Of a DNA stretch of 32,474 nt, positions 2,298-9,655 are shown piece by piece. The DNA comes from a virus. Taxonomy: Duplodnaviria; Heunggongvirae; Uroviricota; Caudoviricetes. How positions within the stretch are numbered: position 1 is the stretch's first letter; the number at the start of each line of letters is the position of its first letter. The translations under genes were made by a program, and so were the position numbers. The notes below the pieces were generated by a model. It saw only the letters and a list, made by a program, of their open reading frames with translations, did not search any database and was not told where the DNA came from. The stretch lies in the IMG/VR virus record IMGVR_UViG_2554235297_000015; one strand, written 5' to 3'.

Positions 2298-3191
2298 ATG
2301 AGTTTAATTACGCAATTAAATGACGTAATGGCCCGTCGCGGCTATACGCAGACCCACGTCGCCCGTGCTATTGGTCGTAGCAGCGCCGTTATCAACCAGT
2401 ATTTACAGGGTAAATATCAGGGCGATATGGCTGATATTGAAGAACGCATTTCTGCCTTTGTGACCCGTGAGCGGGAAAAGGAAAACAGCCGCCGTATTAA
2501 AGCGAAATTTGTTGCCACCGGTATGGCTGCCAAAGGACTGGAAGTGCTGGCCTATGCTCACCTGGAATGTGAAATCTGCGTACTGTATGGCGCGGCAGGT
2601 CTTGGCAAAACAATGATTCTGCGTGAATACGCCGCCAGAAACCGGGATGCGGTCCTGATTGAAGCTGACCCGGGCTATACAGCCAGAACACTGCTTGAGG
2701 AGCTGTGCCGCCAGCTGGGGGTAAAAGTTCGCGGCAATATCCACGAACTGATTGATGCATGTGTGCGAGAACTGCGTGATTCCGGTCGCCTGCTGATGGT
2801 GGACGAGGCTGAACTGCTCCCCTATCGCGCACTGGAGGTTCTGCGCCGTCTGCATGACAAAGCGGGTATCGGGATTGTCCTGGCGGGTATGCCACGCCTT
2901 CTGATTAACCTCAAGGGACGTCGCGGTGAGTTCGCCCAGTTATACAGCCGTGTGGCGCTGGCGCTTAACCTGGGCGATACGCTGTCGCAGGAAGATTTTA
3001 ACCAGATAGCCACCGGGCTGATGCCGGAAGCAGTAGAACCGGAAATCAGCGAGGCGCTTTACGAACGCTCGCTGGGTAATGCCCGCCGCCTCTTCAAACT
3101 GGCGCGCGGTGTGTACCGGATTTGTGATATCAGCGATGCACCGGTCAGTGTGCAGGCCATTGATAAATTCGCAGAAATGTTAATTCACTGA
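2298..3191 (+). CDS. MuB-like AAA+ ATPase, transposition target-DNA activator
   Basis: 297 aa. Walker A GAAGLGKT, Walker B-like LLMVDEAE, N-terminal HTH-like segment. Sits directly after the transposase as in Mu. Confidence 0.85.
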   Translation: MSLITQLNDVMARRGYTQTHVARAIGRSSAVINQYLQGKYQGDMADIEERISAFVTREREKENSRRIKAKFVATGMAAKGLEVLAYAHLECEICVLYGAAGLGKTMILREYAARNRDAVLIEADPGYTARTLLEELCRQLGVKVRGNIHELIDACVRELRDSGRLLMVDEAELLPYRALEVLRRLHDKAGIGIVLAGMPRLLINLKGRRGEFAQLYSRVALALNLGDTLSQEDFNQIATGLMPEAVEPEISEALYERSLGNARRLFKLARGVYRICDISDAPVSVQAIDKFAEMLIH

Positions 3192-3430
3192 TGGAGAACA
3201 AGACGATGGACAAGCAGACCATTAACGCCGTCCGTTCCCGTGCCCGTGTGGCCATCCACACCACTGGTGGTCGTGTAACGGGACAACATCACCGTTTACC
3301 TGTGGTTTATGCCTGCCCGCCCGTGGGTGGTCCTGTATGGCCGGTAACGGAAATCATCCAGACATTCAGCGGCCTGCGCCGCGTGGTGAAAACATCCTGT
3401 ATCGACGGCTGCACCGTCGTATGGCAATGA
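3191..3430 (+). CDS. hypothetical early protein with several Cys residues
   Basis: ORF overlaps the B stop. The more likely start is ATG 3206, preceded by GGAGAA with a 7 nt spacer. No recognisable family. Confidence 0.4.
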   Translation: MENKTMDKQTINAVRSRARVAIHTTGGRVTGQHHRLPVVYACPPVGGPVWPVTEIIQTFSGLRRVVKTSCIDGCTVVWQ

Positions 3431-3686
3431 GAGGAAATCAGAATGGCGGTCAAGTTAGAAGTAATTATCTACACCGATGAAAATGGCACGCTTCGTGTCA
3501 GGAGTATGGGGGCTATTGATAAAAAGGATTTACGGATGAAGAGGTCGGTGTAAGACAACGGTTATGGGAGGTAATGAATCAAACTCTTAATAAAGAATTT
3601 AACGGCGTTGATTTATTTTCTGTTGGCGTGGAACCCTGCGCGCATAACACACATTAATCTGTAAATATCACTGAGGTAATTTAATT

Positions 3687-4331
3687 ATGACGACTGAAAA
3701 TAAAGTTAAGCAATACACGAAAACTCAAGCGCCTGAAGGTTACTGGGTGGATGCCCGTGGCGTAATGACACCTGAAAGCCTTATCAAAGATATTGACCGC
3801 GACCGCGAGCAGCTGGTCGGTGAGCTTGTGGAGATGGTGATTGCTGCCTCCGCCTCACTGCGGGAACTGAAACTGCGTGCGTTTGGTGATATTCAGGCGT
3901 TTATTGACCTGTCGGCGGAGAAATACGGCGCTGTGAAAGGCGGTAAAAAAGGGAATATCACGCTTTACAGCTTTGACGGGCGTTACAAGATTCAGCGCGC
4001 CATGCAGGACCGTATCGCGTTTGATGAACGCATTCAGACCGCGAAGTCGCTGATTGATGATTGCCTGGCTGACTGGACGGAAGATGCACGCCCTGAAATT
4101 AAGGCCATCATCAGTGAGGCATTCAGCACGGACAAGGAAGGCAACATCAACACCGGTCGCGTTCTGGCCCTGCGTCGCCTCGAGATTGAGGACGAACGCT
4201 GGAATAACGCCATGTCGCTGATTGGTGAAGCCGTCCAGGTAATTGGCAGCAAAAGCTATATCCGCGTGTATGAGCGCGTCGGTGATTCTGCTGAATACCG
4301 CGCAATCCCGCTTGATATTGCAGGGGTTTAA
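3687..4331 (+). CDS. hypothetical early protein, 214 aa (possibly a DUF3164-type Mu-like prophage protein)
   Basis: Long clean ORF with GAGGT upstream of the ATG. The family assignment is from memory only. Confidence 0.6.
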   Translation: MTTENKVKQYTKTQAPEGYWVDARGVMTPESLIKDIDRDREQLVGELVEMVIAASASLRELKLRAFGDIQAFIDLSAEKYGAVKGGKKGNITLYSFDGRYKIQRAMQDRIAFDERIQTAKSLIDDCLADWTEDARPEIKAIISEAFSTDKEGNINTGRVLALRRLEIEDERWNNAMSLIGEAVQVIGSKSYIRVYERVGDSAEYRAIPLDIAGV

Positions 4332-4332
4332 C

Positions 4333-4566
4333 ATGCATCAGGATATCAAAGAGTACAGGGCTGGGAACCGTTGCGCAGCGTATTCGCTGGGCGCGTCCAG
4401 AGCAGAACAACGCGGCGATTATGCCGAAGCTGAAAAACTGTGGCGTAAGGCAGCACAAAGCCCGTGTAGTACCCTGCGCCGCATCTGGGCGGAACACCGG
4501 GCAGAGTTCTGTGCCAATGCTCACCTGAAAGGATGGAAGCCGCCTCATGAACGCGAAACGCTTTAA
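4333..4566 (+). CDS. hypothetical early protein, 77 aa
   Basis: ATG 4333 preceded by AGGGG with a 6 nt spacer, two bases after the upstream stop. The ORF-track start at 4243 overlaps the upstream gene and is less likely. Confidence 0.5.
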   Translation: MHQDIKEYRAGNRCAAYSLGASRAEQRGDYAEAEKLWRKAAQSPCSTLRRIWAEHRAEFCANAHLKGWKPPHERETL

Positions 4567-4738
4567 TCAGCTATATCCGCCAGGGACTCGCTTCATGCAC
4601 ATTGCACATCGGGCAGTGCGTGGTGGTCGGGTGGTAAAAACTGTTGCACCTGCCAGAGATTTTAAATGTGGTTGTGTGGTTGAAATTAATGTCGAGCCTT
4701 ATTTCGTTAAAGTCGAAACACTGAAAGCACCGCATTAA
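4547..4738 (+). CDS. hypothetical early protein, 63 aa
   Basis: Start overlaps the end of the upstream gene. No family recognised. Confidence 0.4.
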   Translation: MNAKRFNQLYPPGTRFMHIAHRAVRGGRVVKTVAPARDFKCGCVVEINVEPYFVKVETLKAPH

Positions 4739-4768
4739 TTTAATTTGTTTTTAATTGTTATTTAAAAC

Positions 4769-4800
4769 AGGCGTAAACCCGCAGGGGCTGGCTTACGCCT
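4769..4800 (-). terminator. stem-loop downstream of the reverse-oriented gene, putative terminator
   Basis: AGGCGTAA ... TTACGCCT inverted repeat (8 bp stem). On the - strand it is followed by an A/T-rich tract. On the + strand no T-run follows. Confidence 0.4.
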
Positions 4801-4878
4801 GAATCTGAGGAAGTTTATTTATGAATATTGCTAAGCAAAAAAAATTCGCCCGCGAAATTAATCTGACAATCGTTTGTT

Positions 4879-5097
4879 TTAATCGTCTTGCGACCAGTTC
4901 TCAATCGACAGCAGATGTTCATCCAGCGCCGCAGCCAGAACGAACTCCCCACGTTCCTGAAGGCCGTGCTGGAAGTTGCGTAATTCAGAATCCAGGGCGC
5001 TGAGGTTCAGACAGCCATTTTCTGAAAGCTGTTTAACCAGAAAGCTCCACGCAGCTTTGTTAGCAGTAATTGCTGCCGCAATTTCATCATCAATCAT
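4879..5097 (-). CDS. hypothetical acidic protein, 72 aa, reverse-oriented relative to the early operon
   Basis: The - strand ATG is preceded by AGGAG with a 7 nt spacer. A stem-loop follows the stop. It is the only convincing - strand gene in the window. Confidence 0.6.
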   Translation of the reverse strand: MIDDEIAAAITANKAAWSFLVKQLSENGCLNLSALDSELRNFQHGLQERGEFVLAAALDEHLLSIENWSQDD

Positions 5098-5131
5098 TTT
5101 TTAACTCCTGATTGGGTATGTTGGGGCAGCG

Positions 5132-5140
5132 ATTATGACA
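5132..5140 (-). promoter_or_regulatory. candidate extended -10 element (TGTCATAAT) for the reverse-oriented gene
   Basis: The - strand reads TGTCATAAT about 35 nt upstream of the - strand ATG, inside an 88 bp divergent intergenic region. Confidence 0.3.
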
Positions 5141-5185
5141 AGTGTTTTGTGGTTATAAGTTGATCAAAAACAATGAGTTACAACC

Positions 5186-5896
5186 ATGAAAGATAAATAC
5201 ATTGCCAAAATCAAAAAACTGTTACGCCTTGCCAAAGGAACATCAAGCCCGGAAGAAGCCGCTAACGCTATTGCAAAAGCCCAGGCTTATATGCGCCAGC
5301 ATGGTATCAGCGAAAACGACGCGGAATTGTTCGACATTCAGGAAGCTGCCAGCGCGGGTGCGCCGAGTGACGCCAGTACGCCGCCGCGTTATATGCACAT
5401 CCTGTGTGACCTGGTCTGTAAAGCCTTCGGTGTCGAGTGTTACATCTCCGGCGAATACCGGGCTTCTGGTTCACTTAAACGTTACGTGCGTTTTTATGGT
5501 CCTGACAGCCGCCCGGAAATCGCGGCTTACGCGTTTGATGTGCTTTCCCGTCAGATGATGGCAGAGCGCAAGAAATATCAGGATAAACACTGCAAACGTT
5601 GTGGTCCGTCCACGCGGGTAGCCCGTGGCGACCAGTTCTGCGAAGGCTGGGTCTTTGGTGCCCGTGATGTCATTGCGGTGTATGACGTCTCCCCGGAAGA
5701 AAAAAGCCGCCTTGAGCTTTACAGAAAGAACCTGCACAGCACTAAGGGACTGCGCGACGGGGATATGCGCACAGCTAAAGCGTGTCGGGGTGCAGAGTTT
5801 GCCGCTACTGCCGGTTTTATCGCCGGGAAGAACGCCAGGCTGCATCAGGGGGTTAATGGTCAGAGCAACAGACCGCTGGCACTGGGGAGGGTGTAA
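5186..5896 (+). CDS. hypothetical protein with a DUF2786-like N-terminus
   Basis: 236 aa. N-terminus KIKKLLRLAKGTSSPEEAANAIAKAQAYM resembles the DUF2786 signature common in phage proteins. Cys-rich C-terminal part (CKRCG). Confidence 0.6.
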   Translation: MKDKYIAKIKKLLRLAKGTSSPEEAANAIAKAQAYMRQHGISENDAELFDIQEAASAGAPSDASTPPRYMHILCDLVCKAFGVECYISGEYRASGSLKRYVRFYGPDSRPEIAAYAFDVLSRQMMAERKKYQDKHCKRCGPSTRVARGDQFCEGWVFGARDVIAVYDVSPEEKSRLELYRKNLHSTKGLRDGDMRTAKACRGAEFAATAGFIAGKNARLHQGVNGQSNRPLALGRV

Positions 5897-5898
5897 CG

Positions 5899-6126
5899 AT
5901 GGCTTTTAAACTTCTTAGTGTTACCGAAGCAATATACCAGCCGCCCGGAGAACGCCACGAATACAGGATGAATGACGGTAGCGCGGTGGTTGAGTTCCCC
6001 GGATATCCGGGGGCTTCCCGGTGGCGGTTCTATGACAGTGTGGGACGTCGGATTATTAAAAGAACCGTGCACAACAATATGAAGGCTGCCGTAGAACGTC
6101 ATAAGAGAAGGTTTAACTGCAAATGA
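5899..6126 (+). CDS. hypothetical early protein, 75 aa
   Basis: Strong RBS GGGGAGGG 5 nt upstream of the ATG. Confidence 0.55.
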   Translation: MAFKLLSVTEAIYQPPGERHEYRMNDGSAVVEFPGYPGASRWRFYDSVGRRIIKRTVHNNMKAAVERHKRRFNCK

Positions 6127-6353
6127 AAATTGAATTTTATGACCATGGGGTCACCGCAACTATCACTATTTCTTGTTGGTTCTGGGAGTTCCACCGTTAC
6201 TTCAGAGTTGTAGATGCTGCGCTGTTTGTTGCACCGGGAGCGTTACATCACAGTGGAATCGGTATTGTTATGAACACTGTCATCAGCGGTAAAACGGTCC
6301 CGATGTTGCGGGCGTTTAAAGTGGCAAAACAGGAGGCTGGCAATGGTCATTGA
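6123..6353 (+). CDS. hypothetical early protein, 76 aa
   Basis: ATGA start/stop overlap with the upstream gene. Weak RBS. Confidence 0.35.
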   Translation: MKIEFYDHGVTATITISCWFWEFHRYFRVVDAALFVAPGALHHSGIGIVMNTVISGKTVPMLRAFKVAKQEAGNGH

Positions 6354-6657
6354 TAAAACGATAACGATAGATGTAGCCATGAATACAGGTCTGGCGCTTA
6401 TCGGTTATGGCTATATCACTTTTATGTCATTCAGGTGGTTGATTTCTTCGCTCTTTAAGCAGCGTGAAAAACATCGTTGTAAAGACAAGCGCGCGAAGGC
6501 GCTAAATGCGTTTAATGACGCTTTTGATATTGACCATATGCAACAGGGCGACCCCGCACGCGTAATTACCCGGGGAGATATTGTAATTCTTGTGTACCGG
6601 AATGAAAAAAATGAACAGGAGACAACCAGTGAGTCAGCAAACCAGAATAAGCGATAA
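6343..6657 (+). CDS. small membrane protein, 104 aa
   Basis: AGGAGG 6 nt upstream of the ATG. Hydrophobic segment GLALIGYGYITFMSFRWLISSLF followed by a charged tail. AT-rich coding sequence. Confidence 0.55.
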   Translation: MVIDKTITIDVAMNTGLALIGYGYITFMSFRWLISSLFKQREKHRCKDKRAKALNAFNDAFDIDHMQQGDPARVITRGDIVILVYRNEKNEQETTSESANQNKR

Positions 6658-6793
6658 GAGTCTGACCAGACTGATTGCCGATGCGGACAAGGTGCTGGAG
6701 CGGAACTCCCCCGTTGCCGATGAGGAATGGTGGCAGGATTTCCGGGCTGCAATGCTGGAACTTCAGGAACGTCGTCGGGAGGTGTTGAAGTGA
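6629..6793 (+). CDS. hypothetical early protein, about 54 aa
   Basis: GTG 6629 preceded by AGGAGA with a 6 nt spacer. The ORF track opens at 6590 in the same frame. Confidence 0.4.
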   Translation: MSQQTRISDKSLTRLIADADKVLERNSPVADEEWWQDFRAAMLELQERRREVLK

Positions 6794-7059
6794 GTGAATT
6801 AAAGTGTCGAATTAATGGCAATCAGATAGAACCGTGTGCGGTACTGGCAAAAGCACTCGAATATGGAAATCCAGCCTTTAAGAGTAAAGGCATATTTATC
6901 CCGGAACGCGTGAATATAAACACCGGCGAGCCAGGCTTAGACATTGCTCAAATTCACTCCGGCCAATATGTCGGTCGTGGTGTTGCCATGTGTTTTTGCC
7001 CGTTCTGTGGTGAAAGTCTGAAAACATGGAAAAAGGAGGCAACCAGTGAGCGAGATTAA
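6790..7059 (+). CDS. hypothetical Cys-rich protein, possible zinc ribbon, about 89 aa
   Basis: GTG 6790 preceded by GGGAGG with a 7 nt spacer, GTGA overlap with the upstream stop. Contains CxxxxxxxxxC and CPFCG. Confidence 0.45.
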   Translation: MSELKCRINGNQIEPCAVLAKALEYGNPAFKSKGIFIPERVNINTGEPGLDIAQIHSGQYVGRGVAMCFCPFCGESLKTWKKEATSERD

Positions 7060-7543
7060 CTATCAGGCACTGCGTGAGGTGGCAGAGGCCGCGAAGGGGG
7101 ATACGACGTGGCAGAACCTACAGGCTTTTCATGCTGCGGCTACGCCGGAGGTTGTGCAGGCGTTGCTGGATGAAAACGAAAGACTGTGTCGCGATCTGAT
7201 AGCTCGTAATGGTGAGATTGAAGGGCTTCGGGAGTGGGCAGAAGAACTGGAGGCACGGGAGGTGGCTTTGCCAGTAGCGTCATGCATTGTTGAAGATGGA
7301 TGCATGTGTGTTGATGGGTTCAGTGAGTATGTAGGTCACTCGCTACCTGATGGAATGCATGAGCTTTATGCTGCCCCGCCAGCGTCGGTAGTGCCGGAAG
7401 GACTAGTTAAAGCAGTGCGTTTCTATGAACAGGTAAAGTGTGAGAATCCGCCAGTCGAAACCGGAGCATGGAAAGACGCGGTTGACTGGGTACTCAACGA
7501 GGCTTGCCAGGCTGTAAATATTGACGCCAAAGGAGGTGCGTAA
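7046..7543 (+). CDS. hypothetical protein, possibly Ead/Ea22-like
   Basis: GTG start preceded by AAGGAGG. N-terminus ALREVAEAAKGDTTWQ...AATPEVVQALLDENERL resembles the Ead/Ea22 prophage family. The family call is from memory. Confidence 0.5.
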   Translation: MSEINYQALREVAEAAKGDTTWQNLQAFHAAATPEVVQALLDENERLCRDLIARNGEIEGLREWAEELEAREVALPVASCIVEDGCMCVDGFSEYVGHSLPDGMHELYAAPPASVVPEGLVKAVRFYEQVKCENPPVETGAWKDAVDWVLNEACQAVNIDAKGGA

Positions 7544-7712
7544 TGCGTGTAGCGTTTATCGGTTTATTACCATACCCGACTCGTTTTTGGGCTTCTGCGC
7601 TAATTGCAAAGCCACATGCCCTGATGGCTGACAGCATCATCCCGGCACAAAAGCGCCATACCGGTATTGCTGCTGCACGACGCGAAGCAAAGAAACGCAG
7701 GAGAGCAAAATG
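7544..7712 (+). CDS. small basic protein, 56 aa
   Basis: Not in the ORF track (below its size cutoff). TAATG overlap with the upstream stop, ATGA overlap with the downstream start. Confidence 0.3.
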
Positions 7713-7898
7713 ATGAAAAACCGTAAGGCAAGACTGCTGATAGCAAAGCCAGGGCAACTTATCCGTATCTCAAATCGACTTGTTGTTCACTATAGATATC
7801 TTGGTTTTAGGGAGTGGTCCTCTATTCGTTTTTACGGTGTCTGGCGAAACAGAAGCGCGACACAAAACCGCTGGAAGAATCACACTAACGCAAAGTAA
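7710..7898 (+). CDS. hypothetical early protein, 62 aa
   Basis: AGGAGA upstream of the ATG. Confidence 0.4.
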   Translation: MMKNRKARLLIAKPGQLIRISNRLVVHYRYLGFREWSSIRFYGVWRNRSATQNRWKNHTNAK

Positions 7899-7915
7899 TT
7901 AAATAATAACCAATA

Positions 7916-7943
7916 GCAGACCAAAAAGTATTTTTTGGTCTGC
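7916..7943. promoter_or_regulatory. perfect 12 bp-stem palindrome (GCAGACCAAAAA gtat TTTTTGGTCTGC)
   Basis: Seen directly in sequence, followed by a second short inverted repeat CCAAAA-N6-TTTTGG (7943..7960). Lies in a 60 bp gap after the run of small early ORFs. Confidence 0.45.
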
Positions 7944-7956
7944 CAAAAGTGATGTT

Positions 7957-8244
7957 TTGGTCATTATGAAGATTGAACAAATCGGAATGGCAGCTTTCAG
8001 GCAACAGGCTGAAAGCGGTGGCGTGGATGAGTTCGTCGTGCAGCGGTTCGGTGGTGTGTATCATCTATTCGCTGTGAATCGCCGCGCCGGGGTGTCCTAT
8101 TTTCTACAGGAACGTCGTGGCGATTACAAGACATGGCTGTCTCTTGACCGTGCCGCTGCGTTCTTGTCAGGGATTGGCGTTTCACGTTTTACCGTGCGTT
8201 TTGAGGATAACAAACATGCTGAAAAAGATGATCGGGGCCATTAA
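7957..8244 (+). CDS. hypothetical protein, 95 aa
   Basis: ORF whose 3' end overlaps the gemA start. Alternative start ATG 7966. Confidence 0.4.
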   Translation: MVIMKIEQIGMAAFRQQAESGGVDEFVVQRFGGVYHLFAVNRRAGVSYFLQERRGDYKTWLSLDRAAAFLSGIGVSRFTVRFEDNKHAEKDDRGH

Positions 8245-8614
8245 AGCCGGTCAGGCGTATCTGGGGTGGGATGATGCCCTTTATCGCCAGACGCTGGCCC
8301 GCCTGACCGGTAAAACCAGCACCACACGCTGCAATCTCGATGAACTGCGCATCATCCGGGAATACATGCACGAACAGGGATTCCCGCGCAAGGCACCCGC
8401 TGGTAAAGGTCGCCGCCCTCGTGTTGCAATGAGCAGAAAATCAGTATTATCCAAAATTGAAGCGTTGCTGGCTGATGCCGGTCGTTCCTGGGCGTATGCA
8501 GAAGGACTGGCATCTCACATGTATAAGCAACATGTGATCGAATGGCTGACGGATGAACAGCTTTTTGGAGTGATGGTGGCGCTGGTTAAAGATTCAAGAA
8601 GGAGAAATCAATGA
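8216..8614 (+). CDS. gemA: GemA-like protein (Mu gp16 family)
   Basis: N-terminus MLKKMIGAIKAGQAYLGWDDALYRQTLARLTGK resembles Mu GemA. GAGGAT 7 nt upstream of ATG 8216. The ORF track opens the same frame earlier at 8117. Confidence 0.75.
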   Translation: MLKKMIGAIKAGQAYLGWDDALYRQTLARLTGKTSTTRCNLDELRIIREYMHEQGFPRKAPAGKGRRPRVAMSRKSVLSKIEALLADAGRSWAYAEGLASHMYKQHVIEWLTDEQLFGVMVALVKDSRRRNQ

Positions 8615-9087
8615 TGAAAAAATGGTTGTTTTGTTTAGTAGGGGTTATTTTCTCTTGTTCTGTGCTGGCACAGACAGAGGAACAGGCGCAAAAGGAACTG
8701 AAACGTTATCAGGATATGAAGCCATTGGCTGAACAGATGCTTCGGGAAAGTGGAAAACTTTATTACGCTATGCCAGAAGCTGCATCGCAGTATCAGCAGG
8801 GAAATATTGAAGAGTGGAAGAATATCAAAAAAGGACTAAAACAACTGGATGAACAGGCCAGTAAACTGGGGGACGACCCGCTTGATCCTGTGTATGGTTC
8901 CTGCATAAAAATGAAAAACCAGCTACAGGATTACTGGTCTAACGTTATCAGGGATGACAGGCAGTTTCTGGAGCGTTCAAGAAATCAGTTTAAAGAATAT
9001 CGTATGGATTGTTTTGATTCGTTTGTTTTTGGTAAAGAGCAAATAGAATCAAGAAAAGGCCTGGTTATTCTAGACCTGACTAAATAA
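8611..9087 (+). CDS. secreted or periplasmic protein of unknown function, 158 aa (AT-rich moron)
   Basis: AAGGAG RBS. N-terminal signal peptide MMKKWLFCLVGVIFSCSVLA with an AxA-like cleavage site before QTEE. Coding sequence is clearly more AT-rich than the flanking genes. Its own terminator follows. Confidence 0.7.
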   Translation: MMKKWLFCLVGVIFSCSVLAQTEEQAQKELKRYQDMKPLAEQMLRESGKLYYAMPEAASQYQQGNIEEWKNIKKGLKQLDEQASKLGDDPLDPVYGSCIKMKNQLQDYWSNVIRDDRQFLERSRNQFKEYRMDCFDSFVFGKEQIESRKGLVILDLTK

Positions 9088-9098
9088 GACTTAGTTTA

Positions 9099-9125
9099 GC
9101 CCCTGCCATGCAGGGGCTTTTTTTG
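9099..9125 (+). terminator. rho-independent terminator
   Basis: GCCCCTGC catg CAGGGGC stem-loop followed by TTTTTTTG. Confidence 0.8.
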
Positions 9126-9130
9126 TGGTC

Positions 9131-9158
9131 TGTACAGGCGATCATGTATGGCTATAAT
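9131..9158 (+). promoter_or_regulatory. candidate sigma70-type promoter for the Mor/C gene
   Basis: TGTACA (9131..9136), 16 bp spacer, perfect TATAAT (9153..9158), about 30 nt upstream of the ATG at 9188. Confidence 0.35.
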
Positions 9159-9187: not shown

Positions 9188-9655
9188 ATGCAGACCTTCA
9201 GTGAAACAGATCTTCGCGATGCGCAGGCACTGCTGCCCGATTCCGTGCAGCAACTGATTAGCGTGATTGGCTTCCCCGCCCTGACCCGGTTGATTCGTTC
9301 TTTTGGTGGCGTGACGTTAAGCGGTAAAACCGGCGTACACGCCGAACGCACCGGCGGTGTCCATGCCCTGTTACATGACGTGCTCACCGAAGACGAAATC
9401 AACAAACTGATCCGCTTTCTTGGCGGTGCTCCGTTTTACATTCCCCGTTGCGATCATGCGTTACGTGCCCTGCGTAACACCCGTTTTATGGCTGATTTAC
9501 AGCAGCATGTAAAAGACGGATGCTCACACCGGCAGGCGCTGGCACTGCTCTGTCCCCGTTACGGCATTTCAGACCGGTACGCATGGCAGCTGATACACCG
9601 ACGACAAAAACAGACTTCGCTGAAAAGCCCCACCCAGGTGGGGCTTTTTGATTAA
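9188..9655 (+). CDS. Mor/C-family transcriptional activator (Mu middle/late activator family)
   Basis: 155 aa. C-terminal HTH-like segment ...RQALALLCPRYGISDRYAWQLIHRR typical of Mor/C proteins. Located between gemA and the lysis genes as in Mu. GGAGA RBS. Confidence 0.7.
   Translation: MQTFSETDLRDAQALLPDSVQQLISVIGFPALTRLIRSFGGVTLSGKTGVHAERTGGVHALLHDVLTEDEINKLIRFLGGAPFYIPRCDHALRALRNTRFMADLQQHVKDGCSHRQALALLCPRYGISDRYAWQLIHRRQKQTSLKSPTQVGLFD
9627..9649 (+). terminator. rho-independent terminator overlapping the last codons of the Mor/C gene
   Basis: GCCCCAC ccag GTGGGGC stem followed by TTTTT. Confidence 0.6.

Follow-up and report, generated by a model that had tools for sequence, protein, structure and literature searches.

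Accessory early region of a Gam-less Mu-like prophage in enteropathogenic Escherichia coli E2348/69: a conserved backbone, three variable slots, and the regulator gene rnr

What does a Mu-like prophage without a recognizable gam gene carry between its transposition genes and gemA? We addressed this question in IMG/VR virus record IMGVR_UViG_2554235297_000015 (Caudoviricetes), a stretch of 32,474 nucleotides that we refer to at its full length as the window, in which 5,054 bp (positions 3191 to 8244) separate B, the gene for a MuB-like ATPase, from gemA. A first-pass annotation, made from the letters and a list of open reading frames (ORFs), had described this interval as a set of small ORFs of unknown function and as a place to look for new anti-defense or host-takeover genes. 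In our reading, enteropathogenic E. coli (EPEC) E2348/69 carries a transposable prophage distantly related to Mu, and the interval is its accessory ("semi-essential") early region, transcribed with ner, A, and B and made of a conserved backbone and three cargo slots, in which a Kil homologue and Rnr are directed at the host and Gam is absent, and we put the probability of this reading at about 80%. Directly observed are the genes present, their arrangement as a backbone with slots, the identity of Rnr and that of the Kil homologue, and the lack of Gam.

The interval is 100% identical to positions 2,720,267 to 2,725,320 of the chromosome of E. coli O127:H6 strain E2348/69 (NC_011601.1), and at least 80% of it is found in only 10 of 5,426 complete E. 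coli genomes. It follows ner, the gene for a DDE transposase (A), and the gene for an AAA+ ATPase (B) and precedes gemA and a mor-family gene on the same strand, which is the setting that defines the early accessory region of a Mu-like phage. Compared with the phage Mu proteins, Ner, A, and B are distant homologues (43%, 21%, and 32% identity, respectively, by BLASTP), while GemA and Mor have Pfam matches and the gene order is kept in 80 related loci. The sequenced phages with the closest transposases are Pseudomonas phage VW-6B (49%), Yersinia phage vB_YpM_Tongde (46%), Klebsiella phage ST405-OXA48phi1.1 (45%), Mannheimia phage 3927AP2 (40%), and Haemophilus phage SuMu (40%). The boundaries and the main features between them are as follows.

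2298-3191, plus strand: MuB-like AAA ATPase gene (B), the left boundary
3206-3430, plus strand: Kil homologue, 74 amino acids (aa), pI 10.3, the first gene after B
3431-3686, no strand: variable slot 1, an AT-rich spacer (GC 0.39) with no annotated gene
3687-4331, plus strand: DUF3164 protein, 214 aa, Pfam E = 1e-80, a conserved core early gene of the lineage
4333-4566, plus strand: rnr (E2348C_2635), ANR-family regulator, 77 aa, 8.9 kDa
4547-4738, plus strand: o4547, 63 aa, basic, PHROG 5591 (E = 1.4e-40)
4768-5140, minus strand: variable slot 2 cargo, a self-contained unit with a promoter-like site, ribosome-binding site, ORF, and terminator
5186-5896, plus strand: DUF2786 plus DUF7168 protein, 236 aa, conserved
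5899-6126, plus strand: o5899, 75 aa, PHROG 9400 (E = 1.6e-39), GGAGG ribosome-binding site, not in RefSeq
6123-8244, plus strand: variable slot 3, small genes with predicted translational coupling (o6123, DUF4752, o6629, o6790, Ead/Ea22-like, o7543, o7710, and o7966)
8216-8614, plus strand: gemA, the right boundary, Pfam GemA E = 1.5e-18

RefSeq annotates 13 coding sequences between B and gemA. Two more ORFs, 5899-6126 and 7710-7898 (PHROG E = 3.8e-10), are absent from the RefSeq/PGAP annotation of E2348/69, and the former is likewise unannotated in the close relative STEC346; both match PHROG families and have good ribosome-binding sites and coupled junctions, which brings the total to 15 ORFs and agrees with the count of some 15 given at first pass. 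Fourteen of these are on the plus strand, the one on the minus strand being a self-contained gene, and about 89% of the interval is coding. The chain of genes is continuous from 5899 to 7898, where neighbors overlap by 1 to 29 nucleotides and most genes have AGGAG-type Shine-Dalgarno sites, and to this extent the overlapping chain with good ribosome-binding sites that had been described is real; elsewhere it is broken by gaps at 3431-3686, 4739-5185, and 7899-7965 and by the minus-strand gene. Local AT-rich patches, also correctly described before, lie near 3451-3750, 4651-5250, and 7651-7950 (GC 0.39 to 0.44, compared to about 0.54 elsewhere). Because several ORFs are shorter than 65 aa, two were not called by PGAP, and the minus-strand ORF is an orphan that is truncated in relatives, we considered whether a good share of these small ORFs might be untranslated annotation noise. 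We regard this as very unlikely, since 14 of the 15 ORFs match PHROG families with E values from 1e-10 to 1e-93, homologues persist in other genera at 30 to 60% protein identity, and the ORFs have strong ribosome-binding sites and coupled start/stop overlaps.

The first-pass annotation had proposed that comparison of related Mu-like prophages would reveal variable cassettes in this region. For this comparison we used 80 IMG/VR loci that encode relatives of the DUF3164 protein (55 to 99% identity), searched with all window and Mu early proteins, and a second set of 80 Gam-type loci to represent true Mu. In the first set, the recurrent genes are ner (56 of 80 loci), A (65), B (64), DUF3164 (80, the loci having been chosen by it), o4547 (45), DUF2786 (37), o5899 (31), GemA (59), and Mor (45), and they follow a conserved order: ner, A, B, slot 1 with or without kil, DUF3164, an ANR gene in some loci, o4547, slot 2, DUF2786, o5899, slot 3, GemA, and Mor. 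The gene for o4547 directly follows DUF3164 or the ANR gene, and that for o5899 is mostly found right after DUF2786. Insertions and deletions relative to STEC346 fall exactly in slots 1 to 3. Thus, the region consists of a conserved backbone with three hypervariable, recombination-prone slots of exchangeable cargo.

The first gene after B, which had been grouped with zinc-ribbon-like proteins, instead appears to be a homologue of Mu Kil. The 3206-3430 product matches PHROG 2679 ("Kil") over its full length (E = 5.7e-35) and is 34% identical to Mu Kil over the C-terminal 44 aa (BLASTP, E = 6e-4 in a 20-protein database). It has the same length as Mu Kil (74 aa), its gene starts 14 nucleotides past the stop codon of B, in the position that kil holds in Mu, and a C-terminal GC(V/I)(I/V)W motif is common to this protein, Mu Kil, and the homologues of other Mu-like elements. 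With three cysteines, no CxxC pair, and a single cysteine conserved in the family, together with the Kil homology, a zinc ribbon is ruled out for this protein. The first-pass annotation had named kil among the genes of the equivalent Mu region but missed its homology to this ORF. Mu Kil is a host-killing protein that disturbs cell shape or division, and by homology we assign a putative host-directed role to the 3206-3430 product. A kil-like gene is present in 9 of the 80 related loci.

Slot 1 lies directly downstream, and relatives differ in the distance from B to DUF3164, with values between 0.2 and 2.6 kb. In STEC346, about 180 bp of extra sequence with a 63-aa ORF is inserted at 3443/3445. 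We also noted a possible 36-aa mini-ORF (MAVKLEVIIYTDENGTLRVRSMGAIDKKDLRMKRSV) at 3444-3554, which is preceded by an AGAGGA site and has no annotation anywhere; its start coincides with the junction of the extra 180-bp cassette of STEC346.

The second host-directed gene is rnr, so the label of unknown function was wrong for 4333-4566 as it was for 3206-3430. The product of 4333-4566 scores 56.9 bits against NCBIfam NF033650 (cutoff, 32 bits), the model for the ANR (AraC negative regulator) family, whose members down-regulate AraC/XylS-type activators and bind H-NS, and its mass of 8.9 kDa lies within the published range for ANR proteins (4.4 to 9.5 kDa) and that for clade 2 of the family (8.5 to 9.05 kDa) (PMC10148876). 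Its coordinates are those of the published rnr locus (FM180568.1, 2,721,409 to 2,721,642), and the published rnr recombineering primers map to window positions 4320-4380 and 4517-4570. Since the published coordinates and the primer positions agree, 4333-4566 is EPEC rnr itself, the gene (E2348C_2635) that was deleted in E2348/69 by Rodriguez-Valverde et al. (PMC10148876). According to that report, the deletion led to about 500 differentially expressed genes, with derepression of the locus of enterocyte effacement (LEE) and its type III secretion system (T3SS) and also of perA and hns; Rnr was shown by experiment in this strain to interact with H-NS and Ler, for which two-hybrid constructs were made; and rnr expression was described as activated in Dulbecco's modified Eagle medium (DMEM). 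The words "phage" and "prophage" do not occur in the main text of that paper, while the Citrobacter rodentium rnr gene is noted in passing to lie in a region predicted to be encoded by a phage, in a 2014 paper (PMC4038620). The knockout primer arms end at 4380 and resume at 4517, leaving the first 48 and the last 50 nucleotides of rnr, so that the overlapping start of the next gene (4547) is preserved.

Within the prophage, rnr starts 1 nucleotide after the DUF3164 stop codon and overlaps o4547 by 20 nucleotides. Among 22 related loci with a tblastn match to Rnr, the homologue lies directly after DUF3164 and overlaps o4547 in 20. All nine Mu-like early-region ORFs that were tested pass the NCBIfam ANR cutoff (44 to 63 bits), including genes of the isolated phages Mannheimia vB_MhM_3927AP2 and Vibrio martha 12B12. 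A hidden Markov model (HMM) built from 12 of these sequences detected an ANR ORF on the early strand, no more than about 1.1 kb downstream of DUF3164, in 34 of the 80 DUF3164-type loci, and it detected an ANR ORF in 0 of the 80 Gam-type loci. A tblastn search of sequenced phages with Rnr returned nothing, the ANR genes of the Mannheimia and Vibrio phages being seen by HMM only, and a scan for ANR relatives with the single protein in one bacterial genome per species found no close relative. To our knowledge, the ANR genes of these DUF3164-type phages have never been studied. On this evidence, rnr appears to be a standard early gene in this kind of phage.

A different explanation is that rnr is a domesticated host virulence regulator that is merely located in a prophage, with its own host-controlled promoter and no part in the phage cycle. 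In its support, the published deletion phenotypes were seen in uninduced cultures, and rnr expression was described as activated in DMEM (PMC10148876). Other members of the family also differ in setting: whereas rnr of EPEC lies inside a predicted early operon of a phage, the 2014 paper places Aar of enteroaggregative E. coli and Cnr of enterotoxigenic E. coli on plasmids beside AraC-type activators (PMC4038620). However, the single nucleotide between the DUF3164 stop codon and rnr and the overlap with o4547 leave no room for a promoter or terminator of its own, and the same arrangement, with proteins 30 to 57% identical, is seen again in other genera and also in Mu-like phages that were isolated and are lytic competent. 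The distribution of the gene in E. coli argues in the same direction. It is present in 58 of the 5,426 complete genomes, from chickens, cattle, mice, a crow, soil, river water, and humans, and all 58 carry the whole DUF3164-rnr-o4547 block; the occurrence of rnr therefore follows that of this type of prophage and not that of the EPEC pathotype. We consider domestication unlikely.

H-NS is reported to repress the Mu early promoter, and hns mutations are reported to derepress Mu transposition. We infer that the native role of Rnr is a phage early function that neutralizes H-NS and AraC-type host regulators and that the virulence phenotype is a by-product of carriage. In a wider form of this proposal, which we find possible but doubtful, Rnr-type ANR proteins would have arisen as products of the early operon in DUF3164-type Mu-like phages and would have their main function there. 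They would sequester H-NS and AraC-type or Ler-like regulators, lifting H-NS silencing of the phage early promoter and of AT-rich target DNA and so reinforcing transposition and lytic commitment, and the LEE/T3SS repression in EPEC and C. rodentium would be a side effect of leaky prophage expression or of expression in a subpopulation.

Mu Gam (PF07352) is a Ku-like DNA-end binder that protects against RecBCD. The first-pass annotation had reported no Gam-like sequence, and we confirmed this: no ORF in the window has a Pfam Gam match, in a search where Mu Gam itself scored 4e-42, and the best tblastn hit of Mu Gam to the whole window has an E value of 0.18. We also found that Mu Gam is present in 0 of the 80 DUF3164 loci and DUF3164 in 0 of the 80 Gam loci. 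This strict reciprocal exclusion in the two samples, together with the conserved early position of DUF3164 between B and gemA, raises the possibility that the DUF3164 protein is a functional replacement for Gam in this lineage, protecting DNA ends from RecBCD. Published Mu-like phages with DUF3164 have been described as without Gam (PMC5488378), and we detected no Pfam Gam match in the annotated Mannheimia, Pseudomonas Ab30, and Vibrio phages that carry DUF3164. Against this, there is no sequence or profile relationship between the two proteins, the exclusion may just reflect two clades with a gene content fixed in each, and the DUF3164 protein is acidic (pI 5.1), which would be uncommon in a protein that binds DNA ends, even if not every Gam-like protein is basic. 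We judge such a replacement to be quite unlikely. As for descent, the idea that DUF3164 is a divergent or structural Gam was rejected, the two being unrelated by profile or fold (profile-profile hhalign probability, 0.26%). DUF3164 thus occupies an early position comparable to that of Gam but, by these comparisons, is not its homologue. Just upstream of DUF3164, Mannheimia phage vB_MhM_3927AP2 has a 63-aa protein (gp06, L164 positions 4546-4737) with the RefSeq label "host nuclease inhibitor"; it matches neither the Pfam Mu Gam model nor any NCBIfam model, so this name looks unsupported and gp06 provides no counterexample to the exclusion.

Overall, the region resembles the semi-essential early (SEE) region of phage Mu (kil...gam...gemA, Mup05 to Mup16) in layout. 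Both lie downstream of ner, A, and B and end at gemA and a Mor-family gene, both pack small genes closely into about 4 to 5 kb and have a kil homologue first, and each has one small minus-strand gene embedded in it (gp15 in Mu, 4879-5097 here). In content, however, they share Kil alone. Neither Gam nor Mu gp6 to gp15 have counterparts among the ORFs of the region by BLASTP, and DUF3164, the ANR protein, o4547, DUF2786, and o5899 have none in Mu. The earlier statement that the cargo is largely different from that of Mu therefore holds, and the ORFs do not, as a set, match Mu early proteins at high similarity. The closer relatives are the DUF3164-type phages VW-6B, ST405-OXA48phi1.1, Tongde, vB_MhM_3927AP2, and martha 12B12, whose transposases are 40 to 49% identical and whose early genes follow the order ner, A, B, sometimes Kil, DUF3164, ANR, GemA, and Mor, with other genes on either side of ANR. 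In contrast, their slot cargo is almost wholly different, and the Mannheimia and Vibrio phages have one gene between DUF3164 and ANR.

The largest slot is slot 3, with the following genes.

From 6123, plus strand: o6123, PHROG family
6343-6657, plus strand: DUF4752 protein
From 6629, plus strand: o6629, PHROG family
6790-7059, plus strand: o6790, a protein with four invariant cysteines
7046-7543, plus strand: Ead/Ea22-like protein, matches Ead_Ea22
From 7543, plus strand: o7543, PHROG family
7710-7898, plus strand: o7710, PHROG family, not in RefSeq
7966-8244, plus strand: o7966

All of these genes are in PHROG families, each occurs in just 1 to 5 of the 80 related loci, and parts of the slot are replaced in STEC346. 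Several are known from unrelated phages. The DNA at about 7030-7745 is 86 to 90% identical to segments of Shiga toxin (Stx)-converting, phiV10-like, and P1-like phages, with 393 matching phage records, and within it the segment 7528-7744 (the end of the Ea22-like gene, o7543, and o7710) has 88 to 90% matches to phiV10, Stx, and P1-like phages. Homologues of o6790 are found in P7, D6, Rac, and P22-like phages. The Ead/Ea22-like gene, o7543, o6790, and DUF4752 have counterparts at 45 to 90% identity in the ea/ead regions of lambdoid and P1-like phages (Stx phages, phiV10, Rac, P7, D6, and P22-like phages), although here they sit in the early operon of a transposable phage, not in a lambdoid b/exo-xis region. 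In slot 3, small genes that are exchanged with lambdoid and P1-like phages form a mosaic.

Three zinc-ribbon-like proteins had been proposed in the interval, and this description holds for one of them. In o6790, C6, C16, C70, and C73 (C-X9-C...C-X2-C) are invariant among six homologues down to 45% identity, and this is the only one of the three with two conserved cysteine pairs, so we regard its zinc binding as putative. The 3206-3430 protein lacks such pairs, as does the 7046-7543 protein, which is Ead/Ea22-like and whose own sequence, as distinct from family conservation, has six scattered cysteines and no CxxC pair. The DUF4752 protein, described at first pass as a small membrane protein, has a hydrophobic segment that is no more than borderline, its best 19-residue Kyte-Doolittle mean of 1.24 being below the usual threshold of about 1.6. 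A ParC reading of o7966 was rejected, as the NCBIfam match is weak (17 bits compared to a cutoff of 95). In the 67-nucleotide gap between o7710 and o7966 there is a hairpin (7914-7945) with a 14-bp stem (TAGCAGACCAAAAA-GTAT-TTTTTGGTCTGCCA) and no U-tract after it on the plus strand; close relatives have spacings here of anything between 71 and about 1,000 bp, and the hairpin may therefore lie where cassettes join.

The cargo of slots 1 to 3 bears on the view that the region is largely a reservoir of new anti-defense or host-takeover genes unrelated to known functions. Most of its ORFs are without functional annotation, the slots are hypervariable between close relatives, as anti-defense islands often are, slot 3 genes move between unrelated temperate phages, and early expression is the timing expected for such genes. 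However, searches of PADLOC (defense proteins), Pfam, NCBIfam, and PDB gave no match that links any ORF to defense, and so no lead in support of the anti-defense functions that had been proposed. Moreover, two of the genes have known identities, Kil and Rnr, and the slot 3 genes are common members of the lambdoid Ead/Ea22 neighborhood with hundreds of matching phage records rather than special cargo. We think this view is rather unlikely to be correct, although slot genes may yet have such a role, and favor an accessory early region with exchangeable slots. All but one of the remaining small ORFs belong to PHROG families without known function, and a PDB sequence search with the DUF3164 protein, the DUF2786 protein, the minus-strand ORF, and Rnr returned nothing meaningful. 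The DUF2786-like protein had been called correctly at first pass (5186-5896).

The cargo of slot 2 is the minus-strand unit, which has these parts.

5140-5132, minus strand: extended -10 element (TGTCATAAT), the promoter-like site of the unit
5097-4879, minus strand: ORF for an acidic 72-aa protein, AGGAG ribosome-binding site
4801-4768, minus strand: terminator hairpin, 12-bp and GC-rich, followed by UUUU

Searches of Pfam, PHROG, NCBIfam, and PADLOC gave no match to the protein, which is a near-orphan, with four clusters among 5.8 billion proteins. The promoter and the N terminus of the gene are deleted in three of five close relatives (L004, L005, and L008), and STEC346 has about 1 kb extra in this slot, with two ORFs after o4547. 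We classify the slot 2 gene as an orphan minus-strand moron. An Rfam scan found no RNA family in the region; the one below-threshold match ("Lnt") is on the slot 2 terminator.

Two transcription signals were identified to the right of gemA.

9098-9118, plus strand: first strong intrinsic terminator on the early strand, 9-bp stem with 7 GC pairs, then a T run
9131-9158, plus strand: promoter-like site TGTACA-16-TATAAT, after the terminator and upstream of the Mor-family gene

No comparable plus-strand terminator was found between 3100 and 9098. The region has fewer sigma-70-like sites than shuffled sequence does, and the sole candidate for an internal promoter, a weak 9/12 site at 3765-3794, is not convincing. 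Because there is no strong plus-strand terminator before 9098 and promoter-like sites are few, the early region would be transcribed rightward with ner, A, and B from a repressor-controlled early promoter. The product would be one polycistronic message that ends at the 9098-9118 terminator, and the coupled gene junctions and ribosome-binding sites suggest that its translation is coupled.

Several further observations concern the flanks. Between gemA and the Mor-family gene, 8611-9087 (plus strand, GC 0.40) encodes a 158-aa protein whose N terminus clearly resembles a signal peptide (Kyte-Doolittle, 1.69). The protein matches nothing in Pfam, PHROG, or NCBIfam, is found in 2 of the 80 related loci, and looks like further exchangeable cargo, possibly a periplasmic or surface-acting protein; the 9098-9118 terminator that comes after its gene is the strongest in the region. 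The Mor-family gene itself (9188-9655) is separated from gemA by the early terminator and has a promoter-like site of its own in front of it, whereas Mu mor directly follows gemA, and its product matches Mu C (E = 0.001) about as well as Mu Mor (E = 0.002). The left end of the window is the ner-like prophage gene, and its chromosomal neighbors to the left in E2348/69 are a repressor-like helix-turn-helix gene and a truncated eutC. Positions 1-178 of the left flank (L001; NC_011601.1, about 2,715,507 to 2,715,944) are a eutC pseudogene truncated at its N terminus, so the prophage appears to be inserted in the ethanolamine-utilization operon of this strain. EutR is named among the AraC-type regulators affected by Rnr in the EPEC study (PMC10148876).

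Several points weigh against our overall reading of the interval. Of the 15 ORFs, 11 or 12 have no assigned function. The Kil assignment combines a PHROG profile with a pairwise match that is weak (E = 6e-4 in the 20-protein database), and the presence of ANR in 34 of 80 related loci makes this gene frequent but not universal. The operon structure and translational coupling are predictions from sequence only. Finally, the rnr deletion phenotypes in ordinary culture imply production of Rnr by lysogens, which is not easily reconciled with an early operon that the repressor silences; this production may reflect leaky expression, induction in a subpopulation, or an unrecognized promoter.

The interval is mostly ordinary: the prophage was known, its host is a reference strain, and its accessory early genes come from common phage families. 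The gene rnr was already characterized; the main value of the analysis lies in the phage early-gene context of rnr and in the core early genes of phages that lack Gam. DUF3164, o4547, and DUF2786/DUF7168 appear to belong to the conserved, uncharacterized early core of Mu-like phages without Gam, which form a very large group, and functional work would be better directed at them than at the cargo of the variable slots. The virulence regulator gene rnr gains a phage context as an internal gene of a Mu-like early operon with predicted coupling to its neighbors, and the DUF3164-ANR-o4547 module recurs in phages of Enterobacterales, Pasteurellaceae, and Vibrionaceae. The published rnr deletion phenotypes should therefore be reread in view of how far the prophage is repressed, whether a subpopulation is induced, and whether the deletion has polar effects on adjacent early genes, and the phage context raises the question of whether H-NS antagonism by Rnr serves phage development.

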